Source: Candidatus Limnocylindria bacterium (GTDB lineage: Bacteria > Chloroflexota > Limnocylindria > QHBO01). Taken from it: 47,690 nt of DNA. A model generated the notes under the pieces. The model saw only the letters and a list, made by a program, of their open reading frames with translations, was not told the DNA's origin and did no database searches. The stretch spans positions 1-47,690 of the forward strand of contig JBBQGI010000005.1 of NCBI GenBank assembly GCA_038322875.1, given 5' to 3'. The stretch's first letter is position 1. Every line of letters begins with the position of its first letter. The position numbers and the translations under genes are program-made. This document shows, piece after piece, positions 36,464-46,168 of the stretch.

Positions 36464-36859
36464 TCAGGAGCGGGGGCGCATCTCGCGGACGGCGTTGGCG
36501 ATCGGTGGGTGATCGACGTAATCGAGGCCGGCTGACTCGACGATGCGGCGCGCCTGGTCTGAGCCCGTCTCGCACCACACTGCGCGGGCGCCGACCTCCC
36601 GGGCGAGGTTGACGATGTCCGGCAATTCGTCGGTGGGTCGGTGGGAGTAGACGATATCGGCCTGCGCCGGTTGGCCACCCGCAGGTCGGGTCACGACTGC
36701 GTCCCCCTCGACCTCATATGCCCGGTAATCCTCAGGCGCAGGCCCCTCTGACGCGACCACCTCAAATCCCGCTCGAGCCAGCGACTCGGGCACCTCCCGA
36801 TCGGGCCAGTCGATCAGCAGGATGGTCCGGCTGGCTTGGAGCAACTCCGCGGGTGTCAT
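36464..36859 (-). CDS. CoA-binding (YccU-like) protein
   Basis: Rossmann-like: ADIVYSHRP...AREVGARAVW...ARRIVESAGLDYV. Start at 36859 (GTG at 36910 is an alternative). Confidence 0.7.
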   Translation of the reverse strand: MTPAELLQASRTILLIDWPDREVPESLARAGFEVVASEGPAPEDYRAYEVEGDAVVTRPAGGQPAQADIVYSHRPTDELPDIVNLAREVGARAVWCETGSDQARRIVESAGLDYVDHPPIANAVREMRPRS

Positions 36860-36917
36860 ACCTGCGGATGATACGTCCAGCCCGTCGGCCGGGGAATACC
36901 CCTCGGCCACTGGCGGT

Positions 36918-38921
<2,004 letters not shown>

Positions 38922-38923
38922 GG

Positions 38924-40762
38924 TCAGTTCCTCCTCACACCGACCGCCAGGGCCGGGTTATCCATCGCCTTGTCGACATCGTTCCGCTTCTCGCGGAGCT
39001 GGTTCAGCGTGTGATTGAGCGCCTGCACCTGCTCTTGATCCCCTTCGCGTTGCGCCTCGACGAGCAGCAGCTGTGCGTCGTGCATGTCCTCGGCGACGCG
39101 CCCTTTCTGCAGGCGCAGCAGGCAGGTACGGAGCTCGTTACGAGCCTCACCAGGCTCGAGGGGTGTCGAGTTGCCGTTGGCAGCCAGGTACCCGAGCAGC
39201 TCACGGGCAAGGCCCGCGGTGGCAGGGTCGAGGCCGCCGACGAAGGTCTCCAGGTCGGCCGCAGTGGCCGGTCCCTCGCTGACGTGCGCCTTCCAGGCGA
39301 CGATCAGAGCGGTCGCGGCGGCATCGTGGAACGGGAGCGGCTCCTCAGGCGTGAGCTCGGCGATCAGCGCCGGGTAGCGGAGCAGCAGGCCGAGCGCCTC
39401 GCGCTCGAGAGGATCGGGGCCGAGCGGGCTAGCAGGGGCGATCCCGGGGCCAACCGGGACCGGAGCCGCGCGCGCGGCGCGGCGCACCGGCTCGCGGGCA
39501 AGAGCCTCGCGCAGCACCTTCTCGTCGACGTTGACGAGTCGACCGAGGCGCTGGAGGTACAGCGACTGCTCGACCGGGCTGTTGAAGCGCTTGATGATCG
39601 GCAGGATGACCGAGGTCACCTCGCGCCGCCCGCCGACGGATTGAATGTCAACCGTGGTTGTGACCTGTTGAATCCAATACTCCATCAACTCCGTGCGCTC
39701 AGCTACGGCGCGGCGCCAGCCCTCCGGGTCGTTGCGCACGAACTCGTCGGGGTCTTTCTCCGCCGAGATCCGAATCACACGGAATTTGTCCGCGACCGGG
39801 ACCAGTTCCTCGAGCAACCCACGCTGAGTGGCCGTTTCACCTGCCAGGTCGACGTCATAGGCGAGGGCCACCTCGTCGGCGTATTTCAGCGCCTGCTCAA
39901 CCTGACCTTTGGTCAACGCCGTGCCGAGGCTGGCCACCACGTTCGTGAAGCCCGCCTGGTGAGCGGCCATCACATCGGTGTAACCCTCGACGATCACCGT
40001 CAGCTTTTCGCGGCGGATCGTCGCCTTGGCCAGGTCGAGCCCATACAGGATGTGGCTCTTGTCGAAGAGCGGACCGGCCGGCGAGTTCAGGTACTTGGGG
40101 CCTTCGGCCCCGGGCATGATCCGGCCACCGAGGCCGACCGCCCGCCCCGAGGCATCGCGGATGGGGATGATGATGCGCCCGCGGAACTTGTCGATCACGC
40201 CGCCGCGATTCGACGGCGAAGCGAGCCCGGCCGAGATCAGTTCCTCGTCCTTGAAGCCACGGCTGATGAGCCGACTGGTCAGGGCGCCCCAGTTGGTTAG
40301 CGCATAGCCGATGCTGAAGCGCTCCAAGGTCTCGCTCGTCAGGCCGCGCTCTTCGAGGTAGGCGCGTGCCTTCTCGGCCTGCGGAGTTCGCAACAGCACC
40401 TCGCGGTACCAGGCGATGGCAGCTTCGAGGGCGTCGCGAAGCCGCTTCCTGTAGCGGTCCTCCGTGGCCGTCTGGGCCGAGAGCTCCACGCCCGCCTTCT
40501 CCGCCAGGCGCGACAGGGCCTCACGGAAGTCGATCCCATCGCGGCGCATCAGGAAGGTGAAGATATCCCCGCCCTCGCCACAGCCGAAGCAGCGCCAGCT
40601 CTCGCGGTCGGGGCTGACGATAAAGGAGGGTGTCTTCTCGGCGTGGAAGGGACAGAGGCCCTTGTAGGCGGAGCCAGCCCGTTTCAGGGCGACCGTCTCG
40701 CCCACCACGTCGATCACGGGGAGCTTGGATTTGATCTCGGCGGCGATGCCGGATGAGGTCAT
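38924..40762 (-). CDS. dnaG: DNA primase
   Basis: [11 protein letters not shown]...[40 protein letters not shown]. Confidence 0.97.
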
Positions 40763-40956
40763 ACGGCGGAGGTATCCCGCGCCACGTGGCGCATTGTCAA
40801 GGGCTTGTCAAGGGGGACGGAGCAATTCTATCACGAAGTCAAGCGGCTCCTCTTCGCCCGGAGCCGCGCAGCGTGACTGGATAGGTTGTCTCCAGGTCCT
40901 ACACTGCCACTCACTCGGTCCGTCGAGGCGATTATCTGCTGAGGAGCACCACCGCC

Positions 40957-41550
40957 ATCCCGCGCGCTAAGCGTCCCGCCGATCCGGAACTCACGCTCGC
41001 GGAGGCATTTCGGGAGCTGCACGGCCCGAGCCTGCATGGTTTCGCACTGCTCGTCGCCCTCGGGGAGCGAGAGCCAGCCGAACGAGCGGCAGCGGGGGCG
41101 CTGACGGCCGGAGCCGAGCAAGCCGCCGCGCAGCGGCATCCAGAGCGCGCAGCGGCATGGCTTCGCGCGCGCACACTTCGGGATCTCCAGCACGGACGCT
41201 CGCGCATCGCATCGGCCGGACAAGAGATGCGACGTGAGGCGCTCGCCGAGCTCGGAGTTCAGGAGGCCGTCTTTCGTGGATTGGCAGCGCTCGGCACTGA
41301 GGGACGCGCGGCACTGGTCGCGTCCGCGATCGAGCGCTTCGACCCGATCGACATCGAGACCATCCTTGGCGCCGGAGCCGGTGCGACCCGGCGCGTCATC
41401 GCCGAGGCGCGAGGTCGCTATCTCCGGAGTGTTGGGAATATGCCGGTGGATTCGCCCGGCTCGCCACTCGAAGTCCCTGCAGGCGAGCTCACCACGCGGG
41501 TGCGGGGCATCGTCGCCCGCGCGATCACGGCCGTGCGCGACGCAACATGA
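40957..41550 (+). CDS. Degenerate ECF sigma-factor-like protein (non-canonical start)
   Basis: The frame of ORF 41227-41550 stays open back to a stop at 40882-40884 and encodes a sigma2-like segment (AFRELHGPSLHGFALLVALGEREPAERAAAGAL...HPERAAAWLR) before the sigma4-like segment. GAGGAG lies 10 nt before ATC at 40957. Confidence 0.65.
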   Translation: MPRAKRPADPELTLAEAFRELHGPSLHGFALLVALGEREPAERAAAGALTAGAEQAAAQRHPERAAAWLRARTLRDLQHGRSRIASAGQEMRREALAELGVQEAVFRGLAALGTEGRAALVASAIERFDPIDIETILGAGAGATRRVIAEARGRYLRSVGNMPVDSPGSPLEVPAGELTTRVRGIVARAITAVRDAT

Positions 41551-42275
41551 CCGATCCGCACGAGCGATTCCATCTGTGGCTCACAGCCGGGGCGGAAGGC
41601 GATCCGCCACGCGACCTGGCCGTCCACGCATCGGTCTGCCCTGGCTGTCGCCAATCGATTGCCGCCCTCGATCTGTTGGCGAACGTCGATCCCAAGCGCG
41701 CCGCCATGCCGCCCGCCGCAGCGGCGACGGAACGGCGCGGACTCCTGCGCGCGGGCCGACTGACCCCCGCTGCGGCAGGCATCGTTCTAGGTGCCGTGAT
41801 CCTGGGGATCGGCGCCTCCCAGCTGATCGCCATCGCTTGGACGGGAACGGCCCGCTCCACGGCGACAATCAGCCCGACGCCTGCCCAGACCGTACTGGGC
41901 AGCGAAGCCACGGCTCAGCCGAGCAAGCCGTCTCCCACCTTGACGGCGCAAACGCTGACCCCGCTCACCTCGCCGTCCCCGACGCCGCAACCCACTCCCA
42001 GGCCGACGCCAAGACCGACGCCAAGGCCGACGGCCGCACCGACAGCTGCGCCGACGGCCGCGCCAAGCACGGAGCCCACCGCCGCGCCAAGCCCCACTCC
42101 CGTGGACTCAGACGGCGACACGGTGAGCGACATCGACGAGATCCTCTACGGGTCGAATCCGAGCGACCCGGCGAGCACGCCTGAGGACAAGTTGTACCTC
42201 TCGTCGACCTGTACTGATTTGATCGACAACGACGGCGATCTTCTTACCGATGTCGCCGACCTCGGGTGCGCCTAG
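41547..42275 (+). CDS. ZAS-type membrane anti-sigma-like protein with Ca-binding-type acidic repeats
   Basis: HASVCPGC (HxxxCxxC), TM helix, P/T linker, DSDGDTVSDIDEILYGSNP and CTDLIDNDGDLLTDVADLGC. ATGA overlap with upstream gene. Confidence 0.8.
   Translation: MTDPHERFHLWLTAGAEGDPPRDLAVHASVCPGCRQSIAALDLLANVDPKRAAMPPAAAATERRGLLRAGRLTPAAAGIVLGAVILGIGASQLIAIAWTGTARSTATISPTPAQTVLGSEATAQPSKPSPTLTAQTLTPLTSPSPTPQPTPRPTPRPTPRPTAAPTAAPTAAPSTEPTAAPSPTPVDSDGDTVSDIDEILYGSNPSDPASTPEDKLYLSSTCTDLIDNDGDLLTDVADLGCA
41979..42101 (+). repeat. 12-bp coding repeats (PTPR/PTAA linker)
   Basis: CCGACGCCAAGG-like and CCGACGGCCGCG-like units in tandem. Confidence 0.7.
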
Positions 42276-42297: not shown

Positions 42298-45078
42298 CTA
42301 CTTGTCGCGGACCTCGGCGGAGGTCAGGGCCGCCTGCGCAGCAGCCAGGCGCGCGACCGGTACTCTGAATGGCGAGCAGGAGACGTAGTCGAGCCCGATC
42401 TCGTGGCAGAAGGCGATGCTCTTGGGTTCCCCACCGTGCTCGCCGCAGATGCCGACCTTGAGCCCGGGTCGCGCGGCGCGACCCTTCTCGGTGGCCATCC
42501 GCACCAGCTGTCCGACGCCCTCGGTGTCGAGGACCTGGAACGGATTCTCGGGGAGGATGTGCCGCTCGACGTACTGCAGCAGGAACTTGCCCTCGGCATC
42601 GTCGCGCGAGTATCCGAACGTCATCTGGGTAAGGTCGTTGGTGCCGAAGCTGAAGAACTCGGCGTGCTCGGCGATGGCATCGGCGGTGAGGGCGCCACGC
42701 GGCACCTCGATCATGGTGCCGAACTTGTAGTGCACTTGCTGCCCGCTCATCTCGATGATCTTCGCCACCTCGGCCTCGAGCACGCGCCGTGTCTCGGCCA
42801 GCTCGTTCACGTGCCCGACCAGCGGGATCATGATCTCGGGCAGGGGCGTCCTGCCTTCCGCCGCCACGCGGGCTGCGGCGGCGAGGATGGCGCGGGTCTG
42901 CATCCTGACAATGTCGGGGATCATCAGCCCCAGGCGGACGCCGCGCATGCCCAGCATCGGGTTCTGTTCGCGCATCGCCTCGACGGCAGACAGGAGCTCC
43001 TCGGCCTCGGCCAGCTCGGTGCGGACATCGGTCGGGAGTGATGCATCCGGCGTCAGCTCGATGGTGGTCTGCAGCCGTGTCACCTTGGCGATCAGCTCGT
43101 CGGCGCTCGGCAGGAACTCGTGCAGCGGCGGGTCGATCAGACGGATGACGACTGGCAGGCCGTCCATCGCCCGAAAGAGGCCGGCGAAGTCATCGGTCTG
43201 GAGCGTCTGGAGCTCGGCCAGGGCGGTGTCGAAGGTTGCGACCGTTTCGGCGTCGTCGTCGGAGATCGTCTCGCCGGCCGCCGCGCGGCGCTTGGCATCG
43301 GTCGCACGAGTGGAGGCCAGGATCATGCGGCGCACCGTCGGCAGGCGCTCCTCCTCGAAGAACATGTGCTCGGTCCGGCACAGGCCGATCCCCTGTGCCC
43401 CGAAGGCGCGCGCGCGCTCGGCGTCGCGTGGGTAGTCGGCATTGGCCCGGACCTGGAGGCGCCGTACGGCGTCGGCCCAGCCGAGGAGCGTGGCCAGGTC
43501 GTGCTCGTCCTCGTAACGCGCCTCGATGGTCGGCAGCTCGCCGGCGTAGATCTCGCCGGTCGTGCCGTCGATGCTGATCATGTCGCCCTCGCGGACGGTC
43601 GTACCGCCGGCCTGCATGGTCCGATCGGCGTAGTCGATCTGGAGCGACTCGGCGCCGGCAACGCACGGCAGCCCCATGCTGCGCGCCACGACTGCGGCAT
43701 GGCTGGTCGCGCCACCGCGGGCCGTCAGCACGCCGAGCGCGGCGAGCATGCCGTGCACGTCATCGGGGCTGGTCTCGATCCGCACCAGGATTACCGGATG
43801 GCCGGCCGCCTTGACATCCTCGGCCCGATCGGGGTCGAAGATTGCCTGGCCGGTCGCCGCGCCGGGGGAGGCGTTGAGGCCCTTCGCGAGGAATCGGTCG
43901 GAGGCCTTCGCCTTGGCCACCTCGTCGAAGCGCGGCAGCAGCAGCTGCACGATCTGCGCCGGTTCCACACGCCCGAGCGCCTCCTCGCGGGTGAGGATCC
44001 CCTCCCCCACCATGTCGACCGCGATCTTCACGGCCGCCGGCGCGGTGCGCTTGGCCGAGCGCGTCTGCAGCATGTACAACTTGCCCCGCTCGATGGTGAA
44101 CTCCAGGTCCTGGACGTCCCGGTAGTGGCTCTCCAGGCGTTCGGCGATCCCCTCGAACTCGCGATAGACCTCGGGCAGCTCGTCGCGCATCTGGCTGATC
44201 TTGGCGGGGGTTCGGACGCCGGCTACGACGTCCTCGCCCTGGGCGTTGGTGAGGTACTCACCGTAGAGGACCTTCTCGCCGGTGTTCGGGTCGCGGGTGA
44301 AGGCGACGCCGGTGCCCGAATCGGCGCCCATGTTGCCGAAGACCATCATCACGATGTTCACCGCGGTGCCGAGGTCGTGCGGGATCTTGTTGAACTCACG
44401 GTAGTCGTGCGCACGCTTGCCGAACCAGGAATCGAAGACGGCGCGCACCGCCAGCTCGAGCTGTCGATACGGATCGGTCGGGAAGTCTTCCCCGGTCCTG
44501 TCACGGACGATGGCCCGATATTCGTCGGCGACTTCACGCAGGTCCTCCGCCGTCAGGTCGGTGTCGAGCGTCACTCCGCGACGCTCCTTCAGCGCGTCGA
44601 AGGGCGCGTCAAATTCGGTGGCGGGGATGTCGAGCACGATCCGCCCGAACATGGCCACGAAGCGTCGCCAGGCGTCGTAGCCGAATCGCTCGTTGCCGGA
44701 CCGGGCGATCAGGCCGGCCACCGTCTCGGGGTTCAGGCCCAGGTTGAGGACGGTGTCCATCATGCCCGGCATGCTGAAGGCGGCTCCCGACCGCACGCTG
44801 ACCAGCAGCGGATCCGCCGGATCGCCGAAGCCCTTGCCGGACTCGGTCTCCAGCACCTTCATGTGCGCCAGAACGTCGTCCCAGAGCCCGGCCGGCAGCT
44901 GCTTGCCCGCGGCGTAGTACGCGTTGCAGGCCTCGGTGGTGATGGTGAAGCCCGAGGGCACCGGCAGCCCGGCGTTCGTCATCTCGGCGAGGCCGGCACC
45001 CTTGCCGCCGAGTAGGGCGCGCATGCCGGCATTCCCCTCTGAGAAGGTGTAGATCAGCTTCGCGGCGGTCGTGGCCAT
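42298..45078 (-). CDS. ppdK: Pyruvate, phosphate dikinase
   Basis: LLGGKGAGLAEM, LVSVRSGA, MPGMMDT, GGATSHAAVVAR, GLCRTEHMF, FSFGTNDLTQ, GICGEHGG. Confidence 0.97.
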   Translation of the reverse strand: MATTAAKLIYTFSEGNAGMRALLGGKGAGLAEMTNAGLPVPSGFTITTEACNAYYAAGKQLPAGLWDDVLAHMKVLETESGKGFGDPADPLLVSVRSGAAFSMPGMMDTVLNLGLNPETVAGLIARSGNERFGYDAWRRFVAMFGRIVLDIPATEFDAPFDALKERRGVTLDTDLTAEDLREVADEYRAIVRDRTGEDFPTDPYRQLELAVRAVFDSWFGKRAHDYREFNKIPHDLGTAVNIVMMVFGNMGADSGTGVAFTRDPNTGEKVLYGEYLTNAQGEDVVAGVRTPAKISQMRDELPEVYREFEGIAERLESHYRDVQDLEFTIERGKLYMLQTRSAKRTAPAAVKIAVDMVGEGILTREEALGRVEPAQIVQLLLPRFDEVAKAKASDRFLAKGLNASPGAATGQAIFDPDRAEDVKAAGHPVILVRIETSPDDVHGMLAALGVLTARGGATSHAAVVARSMGLPCVAGAESLQIDYADRTMQAGGTTVREGDMISIDGTTGEIYAGELPTIEARYEDEHDLATLLGWADAVRRLQVRANADYPRDAERARAFGAQGIGLCRTEHMFFEEERLPTVRRMILASTRATDAKRRAAAGETISDDDAETVATFDTALAELQTLQTDDFAGLFRAMDGLPVVIRLIDPPLHEFLPSADELIAKVTRLQTTIELTPDASLPTDVRTELAEAEELLSAVEAMREQNPMLGMRGVRLGLMIPDIVRMQTRAILAAAARVAAEGRTPLPEIMIPLVGHVNELAETRRVLEAEVAKIIEMSGQQVHYKFGTMIEVPRGALTADAIAEHAEFFSFGTNDLTQMTFGYSRDDAEGKFLLQYVERHILPENPFQVLDTEGVGQLVRMATEKGRAARPGLKVGICGEHGGEPKSIAFCHEIGLDYVSCSPFRVPVARLAAAQAALTSAEVRDK

Positions 45079-45122
45079 GCGGCGCTCGAGGATCCTCCAT
45101 CTGGGTAGCGCGGGAGATGATT

Positions 45123-45476
45123 CTAGCGGCGCGGCTGAACGCGACGACGACCGGGCTGCCGGTAGCGCACCTCCAGCAGCGGCCACATGTCGGACACGGC
45201 GATCCGGTAGTCGCCGGCCACGACCATTGCGCGCAGGCGTCCGCTCCGGATGAGGCGCCGCACATGCTCGGGGTGAAAACCCAGGATGATCCCGGCCAGC
45301 CTCGTCCCGACAGCGAGCGATTCGGGGTCGACCTCGGCCGATGCGTCCATTCCCGCGAGTGCGACGGCCATCGCCTTGGCGCGATCCGCGGTGAGCGCTA
45401 CCGCCTCGGGCTCGGGACGCCGCATGGCGCTGGCCACCGCCGCGGCCAGGTGCTCCCGCAGGTCGCCGACCTTCAT
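45123..45476 (-). CDS. Small excisionase-like helix-turn-helix DNA-binding protein
   Basis: C-terminal LAGIILGFHPEHVRRLIRSGRLRA...GDYRI resembles the HTH_17/MerR-like fold. TGATG overlap with upstream gene. Confidence 0.72.
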   Translation of the reverse strand: MKVGDLREHLAAAVASAMRRPEPEAVALTADRAKAMAVALAGMDASAEVDPESLAVGTRLAGIILGFHPEHVRRLIRSGRLRAMVVAGDYRIAVSDMWPLLEVRYRQPGRRRVQPRR

Positions 45477-46168
45477 CACACGCGAAGCCAGCCGCGACGC
45501 AGGGCCAAGGCGAAGAGCGTCGGCACGGCGGCGAGACGGCGGCCCAGCCATCGGGCGTGCTGACGGTAGAGCGATCGAGCCTTCGTGAGCACGCGCTGGC
45601 GGTCGACCCCTCGCAGCTCCTCGGCCAGGGAGCTGAATTCGTGGAAGGCGTCCGCCGCGTGACCCGAGAGCCAGATGGCGTCGGCCAGCGTCTCGCGAGC
45701 GGTCGCATCGCCTGGGCGCAGATCGTGGGCGCGGCCTGCCGCCTGGAGCGCGCCGACCGGGTCGTCCAGGCGGATCAGCCCTCGGGCCAACGCCAGCTGG
45801 GCGTCAAAGCTCCCCGGATCGAGGCGGATGGCGCGGCGCGCCGCCTCGACGCCCTTCCCGGCGTCCGCCGTCTCGAGGCGCTCGTCTGCCTCGGCCACGG
45901 TCCATGCCAGCTGACCGGGGTCGAGCCGAGCCAGGCGGGCGTACTCGGCGGCCGCGTCCGCATGGGCGCCGCGGCGGGACTGGATCTCCGCCAGCAGCTC
46001 GCGATAGCGAACCTCCTCGGGATCCAGGCGAACCGCGTCGAGGGCGTCCCGCTCCGCCTCCTCCAGGCGACCACCCGCCAGCAGCGCACGAGCTCGGGCG
46101 GCGTGCGCCGCGTCGTCGCCCGGACGTTCGACGAGGTGCTCCGAGAGCTCGTCCAGGTCCTGGGCCAT
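45476..46168 (-). CDS. Tetratricopeptide repeat protein
   Basis: Repeated A.RLDP / A..LRP TPR-like units. Confidence 0.85.
   Translation of the reverse strand: MAQDLDELSEHLVERPGDDAAHAARARALLAGGRLEEAERDALDAVRLDPEEVRYRELLAEIQSRRGAHADAAAEYARLARLDPGQLAWTVAEADERLETADAGKGVEAARRAIRLDPGSFDAQLALARGLIRLDDPVGALQAAGRAHDLRPGDATARETLADAIWLSGHAADAFHEFSSLAEELRGVDRQRVLTKARSLYRQHARWLGRRLAAVPTLFALALRRGWLRV

Follow-up and report, generated by a model that had tools for sequence, protein, structure and literature searches.

Extracytoplasmic function (ECF, group 4) sigma factors paired with zinc-binding anti-sigma (ZAS) proteins are represented by SigW/RsiW, SigL/RslA, SigR/RsrA and RpoE/ChrR, and the overlap of an ECF sigma gene with the gene of a ZAS anti-sigma is the arrangement that textbooks give for true ECF sigmas. 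ZAS proteins are recognized by an H-x3-C-x2-C motif together with a fourth ligand approximately 20-26 residues upstream. Here, we analyzed a 47,690-nucleotide stretch of a Candidatus Limnocylindria genome (assembly GCA_038322875.1, contig JBBQGI010000005.1, positions 1-47,690; hereafter the window), whose plus strand carries, between 40885 and 42275, an ECF-like sigma gene that has no canonical start codon and, directly behind it, a gene for a ZAS-type anti-sigma-like membrane protein. With modest confidence, we lean towards reading this pair as a genuine, highly diverged ECF sigma/ZAS anti-sigma module that is kept scarce by initiation on a near-cognate codon. Judged from fold, homology and partner, the module would work like the known pairs, from which it differs in that the D..Q motif of region 2.2 is replaced, Sigma70_r2 finds no match and the peak of conservation has moved to an HPERAAAW loop; an extra C-terminal helix, the missing canonical start codon and a fixed place beside dnaG-rpoD set it further apart.

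Three other groups of described systems bear on this locus. The ECF classification of Casas-Pastor et al. 2021 (PMC7826278) excludes, according to its main text, ECF-like proteins in which either sigma2 or sigma4 has no match to its Pfam model (ComX, VP0055 and SigI), and it remarks that the N-termini of ECFs with non-canonical starts are overlooked. The protein described here resembles ComX, VP0055 and SigI in that one sigma domain, in this case sigma2, misses its Pfam model, but those three are functional by experiment, whereas the present family is known from sequence and model alone. Going by the main text of that classification, which leaves room for a minor group, the family probably falls into none of the 157 ECF groups. 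The second system is PhyR of the general stress response in Alphaproteobacteria, with which a first-pass annotation of this DNA, made from the letters alone, had compared the protein. The sigma-like protein is not PhyR-type, because it has neither a receiver domain nor a NepR partner; it stands alone, in a different phylum, and its partner is a membrane protein with an H-x21-H-x3-C-x2-C signature and a membrane helix, which the annotation had missed. The third group comprises regulators with conserved non-canonical starts, for which the available text of PMC13009471 names infC (AUU/AUA), pcnB (AUU) and, from S. aureus, ccpN (AUA) and cvfC1 (AUU). Non-canonical starts on regulators are hence known already, and our gene shares with these the regulatory role and a strong or extended and well-spaced Shine-Dalgarno (SD) sequence; like them, it has no canonical start and is conserved among species. 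What is new is that the start codon of one conserved regulator drifts across a clade, between ACG, AUC, CUG and back to AUG, with ACG the commonest. The literature searched gave natural ACG starts for viruses, organelles and eukaryotes only and none for bacteria, nor did it give any ECF with a non-canonical start, apart from the general remark in PMC7826278.

A two-domain ECF fold and its operon partner

The reading frame of the sigma-like gene is closed upstream by a TAG at 40882 and then stays open for 221 codons, from 40885 to the TGA at 41548-41550. Its earliest ATG, GTG or TTG is the ATG at 41227, which gives the 107-residue product of the open reading frame track; the first-pass annotation, which had described a frame open from 40885 with no standard start before 41227, was exact on this point. 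From the ATC at 40957, the coding sequence (40957..41550, plus strand) yields the 197-residue protein that the annotation had proposed. An AlphaFold2 (AF2) model of this protein, built on a 66-sequence alignment of the family (A2), showed a confident two-domain sigma2 plus sigma4 ECF fold (predicted local distance difference test (pLDDT) 89.9, predicted template modeling score (pTM) 0.79), in agreement with the sigma-like pattern first noticed in the letters. The sigma2-like domain occupies model residues 13-100 (40984..41247) and the sigma4-like helix-turn-helix domain residues 103-165 (41254..41442), followed by the extra helix at residues 180-199 (41485..41544), which carries the conserved pattern G.LA.RV...A.RA. 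Structural comparison with Foldseek and VIA-align returned ECF sigmas and PhyR, and the C-terminal helix lies outside the ECF matches except for the long-extension sigmas SigG1 and SigJ. All nine helices are assigned to sigma2, sigma4 or this single C-terminal helix, and at 197-221 residues the protein holds no further domain.

Homology to ECFs was equally evident at the profile level, where hhalign aligned A2 with seven canonical ECFs of the same genome over 145 columns covering both domains (probability 94.7%, E = 5.7e-8). In this alignment the stretch AERAAAGAL of the window protein (41077-41103) falls on the canonical AeD..Q..f, the family consensus being A.rlA..AL, which bears out the earlier observation that the core-binding DxxQ motif is lost, and GATRRVIAEARG falls on the canonical G-t-v...l..a helix. 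The strongest conservation of the family lies in the loop HPERAAAW (41137-41160), which, extended to HPERAAAW.R and including the Trp of region 2.3/2.4, is invariant in the 66 sequences. The protein is an ECF sigma homologue with both domains, and its divergence is concentrated in sigma2. Domain models recovered little of this: the 221-residue frame matched nothing in Pfam at E <= 10, the 197-residue form reached PhyR_sigma-like at E = 0.16, and the NCBIfam model SigM gave E = 7.8e-5 with 22 bits against a cut-off of 190. Within the family, Sigma70_r4_2 (PF08281) matched 30 of 66 members at E <= 1 (best E = 4.3e-7), the window copy not being among them. We therefore file the protein as an ECF-like variant rather than assign it to a defined ECF group, since fold, homology and partner are those of an ECF while the Pfam sigma2 match and the region 2.2 motif are absent.

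For the comparison with relatives, we collected 80 orthologous loci from species-representative genomes and added the window; 67 of these 81 loci could be anchored on the His of a conserved LHG, and the other 14 were left out of all counts. The second gene of the pair (41547..42275, plus strand) encodes 242 residues, and its ATG overlaps the sigma stop codon as ATGA (1 nt), an arrangement that recurs in most of the 67 loci. Downstream proteins with H-x3-C-x2-C were found in 62 distinct forms among the 67 loci, and their alignment has H5, W11, R22, H27, A28, C31 and C34 invariant, of which H5, H27, C31 and C34 make up H-x21-H-x3-C-x2-C, the ZAS zinc signature including the fourth ligand. A single membrane helix and a Pro/Thr-rich outer part follow this motif. 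The anti-sigma domain as such is poorly supported by sequence and by fold: Pfam zf-HC2 matched eight of the 62 proteins (best E = 0.0024), the match to ChrR was poor (E = 0.14), and the AF2 model (pLDDT 84) had RslA and RsiW as its best Foldseek rows, both non-significant (E = 2-4, probability <= 0.12). The anti-sigma-like gene has no obvious SD sequence of its own and is probably translated in the wake of the sigma gene. At the C-terminal end of the protein, its last 22 residues (42207-42275) resemble the NCBIfam model NF033662, an 'acidic double-disulfide repeat', below its cut-off (E = 9.6e-6), and orthologous anti-sigma-like proteins range from approximately 150 to 500 residues in total, so that the sensor part varies.

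Start codons across the orthologous loci

Upstream of the coding sequence, on the plus strand, the window presents the -10-like box TACACT (40900-40905), two adjacent CTG codons (40936 and 40939; 40936..40941) with a GAGG (40925-40928) that ends 7 nt before the first of them, the SD sequence GAGGAG (40941-40946) and ATC (40957..40959), at the positions given for them in the first-pass annotation. Its choice of GAGGAG with ATC 40957 as the best candidate start also held, ATC being the only near-cognate codon after the SD sequence and the most likely initiation codon in the window genome. Two of these elements recur among the orthologues. A TAnAnT hexamer (mostly TACACT, TAGACT or TAAACT) precedes the start region in 63 of the 67 loci in varying frames, which indicates conservation as DNA, and the window copy is the probable promoter of the sigma-like operon (hand score 8/12; not called by a simple sigma-70 scan). 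Approximately 30-45 nt past this box, a GGAGG- or GGAG-type SD core stands at the same place as the GAGGAG of the window; since the frames in which it is read differ (RS, GG, EE), what is conserved is the RNA and not the encoded peptide. A sigma-70 and terminator scan made no call. An Rfam search of 40700-41050 found no match, and the leader at 40912-40990 folded no better than shuffled sequences (z = 0.86), for which reason we propose neither a riboswitch nor a leader structure. No RNA run is among the sequencing runs listed for the stretch.

The start region was next compared with Logan contigs, as distinct from raw reads, of four runs from four studies (X1, X2, X3 and X6), which cover 40896-40963 and of which the best-matching run may be the sample behind the window's own assembly. 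Among the differences listed, none fell within 40936-40963, and there was no insertion or deletion across 40760-41760. The GAGGAG was unchanged and the ATC at 40957-40959 invariant in the contigs of all four runs, including base 40959, which the annotation had singled out for verification. The sequence of the start region is not an assembly slip. It reads ACC ACC GCC ATC in the window and also in the X6 strain; the ACC ACC (40948..40953) occupies columns -24 and -23 of the codon-register alignment (column -24 lying 24 codons before the His of LHG), where orthologues have ATG, ACG or CTG (-24) and ACG (-23), so that the ACG of the relatives is gone and the ATC is kept.

A maximum-likelihood tree was built on the core protein with the N-terminal columns excluded, and comprised 66 rows after removal of one locus whose frame runs on (L064). 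Its first clade has an ATG 22-29 codons before the anchor in 24 of 25 rows, while in the second, which includes the window, 22 of 41 rows have no ATG, GTG or TTG at -31..-17. The window's own sub-clade of 34 rows (support 95) holds 21 such start-less rows, and the start-less state requires 12 changes on the tree, at least six of them being forced by well-supported branches. Most start-less rows (19 of 21) show an SD core followed 4-9 nt downstream by a near-cognate ACG, ATC or CTG; by codon, ACG occurs in 17 of the 21, ATC or CTG in three, and none of these in the last one. Of the 34 rows, 18 have ACG at column -23 and 26 have it somewhere within -27..-19. Among Thr codons, ACG accounts for 30 of 40 at -25..-22, compared with 126 of 264 in the core of these genes, an excess that amounts to no formal test because the rows are kin and their counts not independent. 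Column -24 is filled by ATG in two rows, ACG, CTG and CAG in one row each, CCG, CCA or CCC in six, and ACC in the window, as though an ancestral ATG had decayed repeatedly next to an ACG that was kept. In one relative (L018), TGA TGA TGA immediately precedes the SD sequence; translation must therefore begin downstream of the latter, and the only candidates there are ACG and ATC. Another locus (L088, CAVYSK010000019.1) has no in-frame start candidate and carries an ATG one base out of frame behind an SD-like AGG, which could reflect either an assembly error or a shifted frame in the variable N-terminal part. Read from the tree, the missing start is old and clade-wide; the gene is probably translated weakly, from ATC in the window and from ACG in its relatives.

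Evidence for translation and selection came from codon-position differences in 25 pairs of close orthologues in ten groups. By first, second and third codon position, these were flat in the upstream region (219/221/219 at -60..-45 and 216/191/215 at -45..-29), became periodic from -24 (66/45/87 at -24..-15) and showed strong periodicity in the core (225/162/789). Between the X6 strain and the window, the differences listed across 40948-41550 comprise 15 synonymous and seven non-synonymous changes, and because these are mostly synonymous, the gene is under purifying selection with neither a canonical start nor the ACG; the neutral evolution that the annotation had named as a refutation was not found. 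What stood of that annotation is thus a hidden, degenerate ECF-sigma-like gene with no canonical start and a replaced D..Q motif; its alternative of a recent loss of the start codon did not stand, given the 21 start-less rows, the at least six changes and the persisting selection.

A genome-wide screen for start-less frames based on GC content at the three codon positions proved unspecific and was discarded, as both strands of one locus passed and the sigma-like gene failed. Orthologue flags reading '1 TGA inside' were rejected as recoding, being the genes' own stops overrun by the profile.

Proposed mechanism and competing readings

In the mechanism that we propose, the sigma-like gene would be the first of a two-gene operon transcribed from the conserved TACACT box at 40900, with the anti-sigma gene second and translationally coupled to it through the ATGA. 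The GAGGAG at 40941-40946 would place ribosomes, and initiator tRNA would then start inefficiently, there being no AUG, GUG or UUG, on a near-cognate codon, namely AUC 40957 here (197 residues) and, in most relatives, an ACG 5-8 nt behind GGAGG. Such a weak start would keep the sigma scarce and, via coupling, the anti-sigma as well, and synthesis of both may depend on start-codon stringency (initiation factor 3, IF3). As in the families concerned, the anti-sigma would tether the sigma to the membrane, and a thiol/zinc or envelope signal would then release it to bind RNA polymerase. An SD-directed start on a near-cognate codon is the most economical reading, and precedents exist for its elements. 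The available text of 10.1101/063800 reports initiation in E. coli at 1-2% of the AUG level for AUC, AUU, AUA and CUG and at 0.1-1% for the remaining codons, with Met N-termini at AUC and ACG starts confirmed by mass spectrometry; for S. aureus, conserved AUU and AUA starts with extended SD sequences are described as limiting the regulators cvfC1 and ccpN (PMC13009471, available text).

More tentatively, a broader picture may apply to a clade of soil and sediment Limnocylindria, in which a conserved sigma-like regulator would naturally start at ACG, a Thr codon and no known bacterial start, after repeated decay of an ancestral AUG (AUG to ACG or CUG, then to CCG or ACC), with the extended SD sequence having taken over start-site selection and the standard contact to RNA polymerase maybe given up. 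If true, this would be an ECF relative blind to the core enzyme, with its dose controlled by initiation alone. For work on translation, the family offers a natural series of start codons behind a strong SD sequence, on which one can ask how far SD strength replaces codon identity in bacteria; for transcription, an ECF fold with an anti-sigma partner and a -10 loop but without the region 2.2 motif tests what core binding needs.

Several observations weigh against the module as we read it. On the protein side, the region 2.2 D..Q of ECFs is replaced, Sigma70_r2 (PF04542) matches none of the 66 family members at E <= 1, and the gene is absent from both Pfam sigma scans of its own genome, one of which returned 20 Sigma70_r2 matches; core binding is unproven, because that Pfam match is missing and that motif is replaced. 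On the DNA side, inspection of the anchored upstream regions by eye revealed no conserved ECF-type self-promoter (GGAAC-N16/17-CGT), and the conserved TAnAnT box looks like a housekeeping -10. As to the start itself, the window has ACC in place of the ACG of its relatives, its ATC is 10 nt away from GGAG, among the longest spacings that work, and recurs in the same column in only six of the 34 rows, CTG 40936 has a GAGG of its own, and the ACG excess is drawn from related rows.

The protein-side points lead to the alternative of a sigma mimic or decoy, as the first-pass annotation had suggested, which would have kept the ECF fold, lost binding to the RNA polymerase core, and occupy the ZAS anti-sigma or regulate otherwise, its dose again set by the weak start. 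The absent region 2.2 motif, with both its D and its Q replaced, favors such a core-blind mimic, and so do the failure of Sigma70_r2 across the family, the prominence of PhyR_sigma-like, which is the most frequent Pfam match (41 of 66 members, best E = 8.3e-5), and the best PDB sequence match, the PhyR-type protein 9by5 (E = 2.1e-6). The same genome also holds approximately 19 ordinary ECFs besides rpoD, all found by the Pfam models that miss the sigma-like gene, and the anti-sigma could control these canonical ECFs as well. A working sigma, on the other hand, is favored by the partner in the operon, by the invariance of the -10-type loop and by an Arg-rich helix in sigma4, and we regard the mimic as a less likely but serious rival. 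A complex prediction of the sigma2 part (A2 residues 12-104) with a beta' clamp-helix fragment gave a score of 0.00 without controls and hence no verdict; the fragment was taken from a same-genus genome (G023), and rpoC was not found in the window's own assembly.

A second alternative leaves the gene and its function as proposed and moves only the start, to CTG 40936 or 40939 (204 or 203 residues). The 7-nt distance between GAGG and CTG 40936 is ideal, CUG equals AUC as a near-cognate in E. coli according to the available text of 10.1101/063800, and one orthologue (L025) has a CTG right behind its SD sequence. However, the CTG pair is conserved in no aligned orthologue, CTG 40939 overlaps the conserved SD sequence, and a substitution (40928 G>C) removes the GAGG in the X6 strain, where GAGGAG and ATC are unchanged. 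For the window we see ATC 40957 as the start with roughly balanced chances and one of the two CTG codons as unlikely, with any other start making up the remainder.

Far less probable is a dying gene, that is, a frame that lost its start and is untranslated, with only residual conservation. Its appeal is that the window lacks even the ACG kept by its relatives and that gene finders call no more than the last 107 residues, but no stop or frameshift has arisen in the 221 codons here or in the orthologues examined, and the coupled anti-sigma gene is intact. Moreover, the two strains that share ACC ACC GCC ATC differ mainly at synonymous sites (15 versus seven listed), and protein identity is still 55-60% in the sub-clade with 21 start-less rows out of 34. 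Finally, an assembly or sequencing error hiding a normal ATG, conceivable in a metagenome-assembled genome of 254 contigs, is negligible in view of the contigs of four runs from four studies, with no listed difference in 40936-40963 and no indel in 40760-41760, and of the equally start-less orthologues from many other assemblies.

Family distribution and neighboring features

The family is concentrated in one lineage. A word-indexed protein search scored 8000 proteins, 943 of them at E <= 1e-3; among the 120 proteins listed, 119 had no precomputed Pfam domain, and those with a named source came from Limnocylindria or Chloroflexota. When 1.84 billion cluster representatives were scanned in full, 129 clusters reached E <= 1e-30, and the ESM Atlas contributed only unnamed Chloroflexota clusters and Sigma70_r4 clusters. 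At E <= 1e-10, the family profile matched 62 of 69 genomes of the window's Limnocylindria family (f1; genomes at least 80% complete) and one of 131 genomes of other families in the class, the latter match being weak. The 62 genomes include two flagged as unpublished (G175 and G116), a flag also carried by G017, and no conclusion rests on them.

The missing start has consequences for annotation, in that gene finders restricted to ATG, GTG and TTG truncate the family or miss it, in the window keeping 107 of approximately 197 residues. About 26 of the best 150 cluster representatives (among P0195-P0248) begin inside sigma2 (MTLGD, VTLGD, LLLTLGD, VHGARLYGF and others), the outcome to be expected of a gene finder that meets no canonical start upstream, and public protein sets hold many truncated versions of the family. 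Sigma-factor counts in these genomes serve as an ecological proxy (PMC13212565), and the available text of that study, which links Limnocylindria and sigma factors, only counts sigma factors; such counts omit the present family, since gene finders truncate or miss it.

Upstream of the operon, the divergent neighbor is dnaG (primase; 38924..40762, minus strand), and behind it lies rpoD (sigma2 match at 37503-37712); together they form the classical pair of macromolecular-synthesis genes. Of the 67 loci, 61 have a DnaG zinc-finger motif upstream on the strand opposite the sigma-like gene, and the divergent placement of the sigma-like operon next to dnaG-rpoD (36800-40762, minus strand) is kept in the same number. 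The intergenic region contains, at 40794-40843, two exact copies of TTGTCAAG separated by 11 nt, and the 47.7-kb window has no others (0.28 expected); the near-copy AAGTCAAG and an ATTCTAtC box come after them. The pattern of TTGTCAAG and ATTCTA(C/G)C recurs between dnaG and the sigma-like gene in most orthologous loci and may constitute an operator or promoter cluster. Read on the minus strand, this pattern resembles an extended -10 (TGnTAGAAT) that would serve dnaG and is backed by repeated TTGACAA sites.

On the other side of the operon, the minus strand at 42298-45708 carries a pyruvate phosphate dikinase frame listed as 1136 residues from a far-upstream ATG. Its N-terminal part of approximately 200 residues is rich in Arg, Gly and Pro and looks untranslated, and the real start is probably an internal Met before TTAAKLIYTF.
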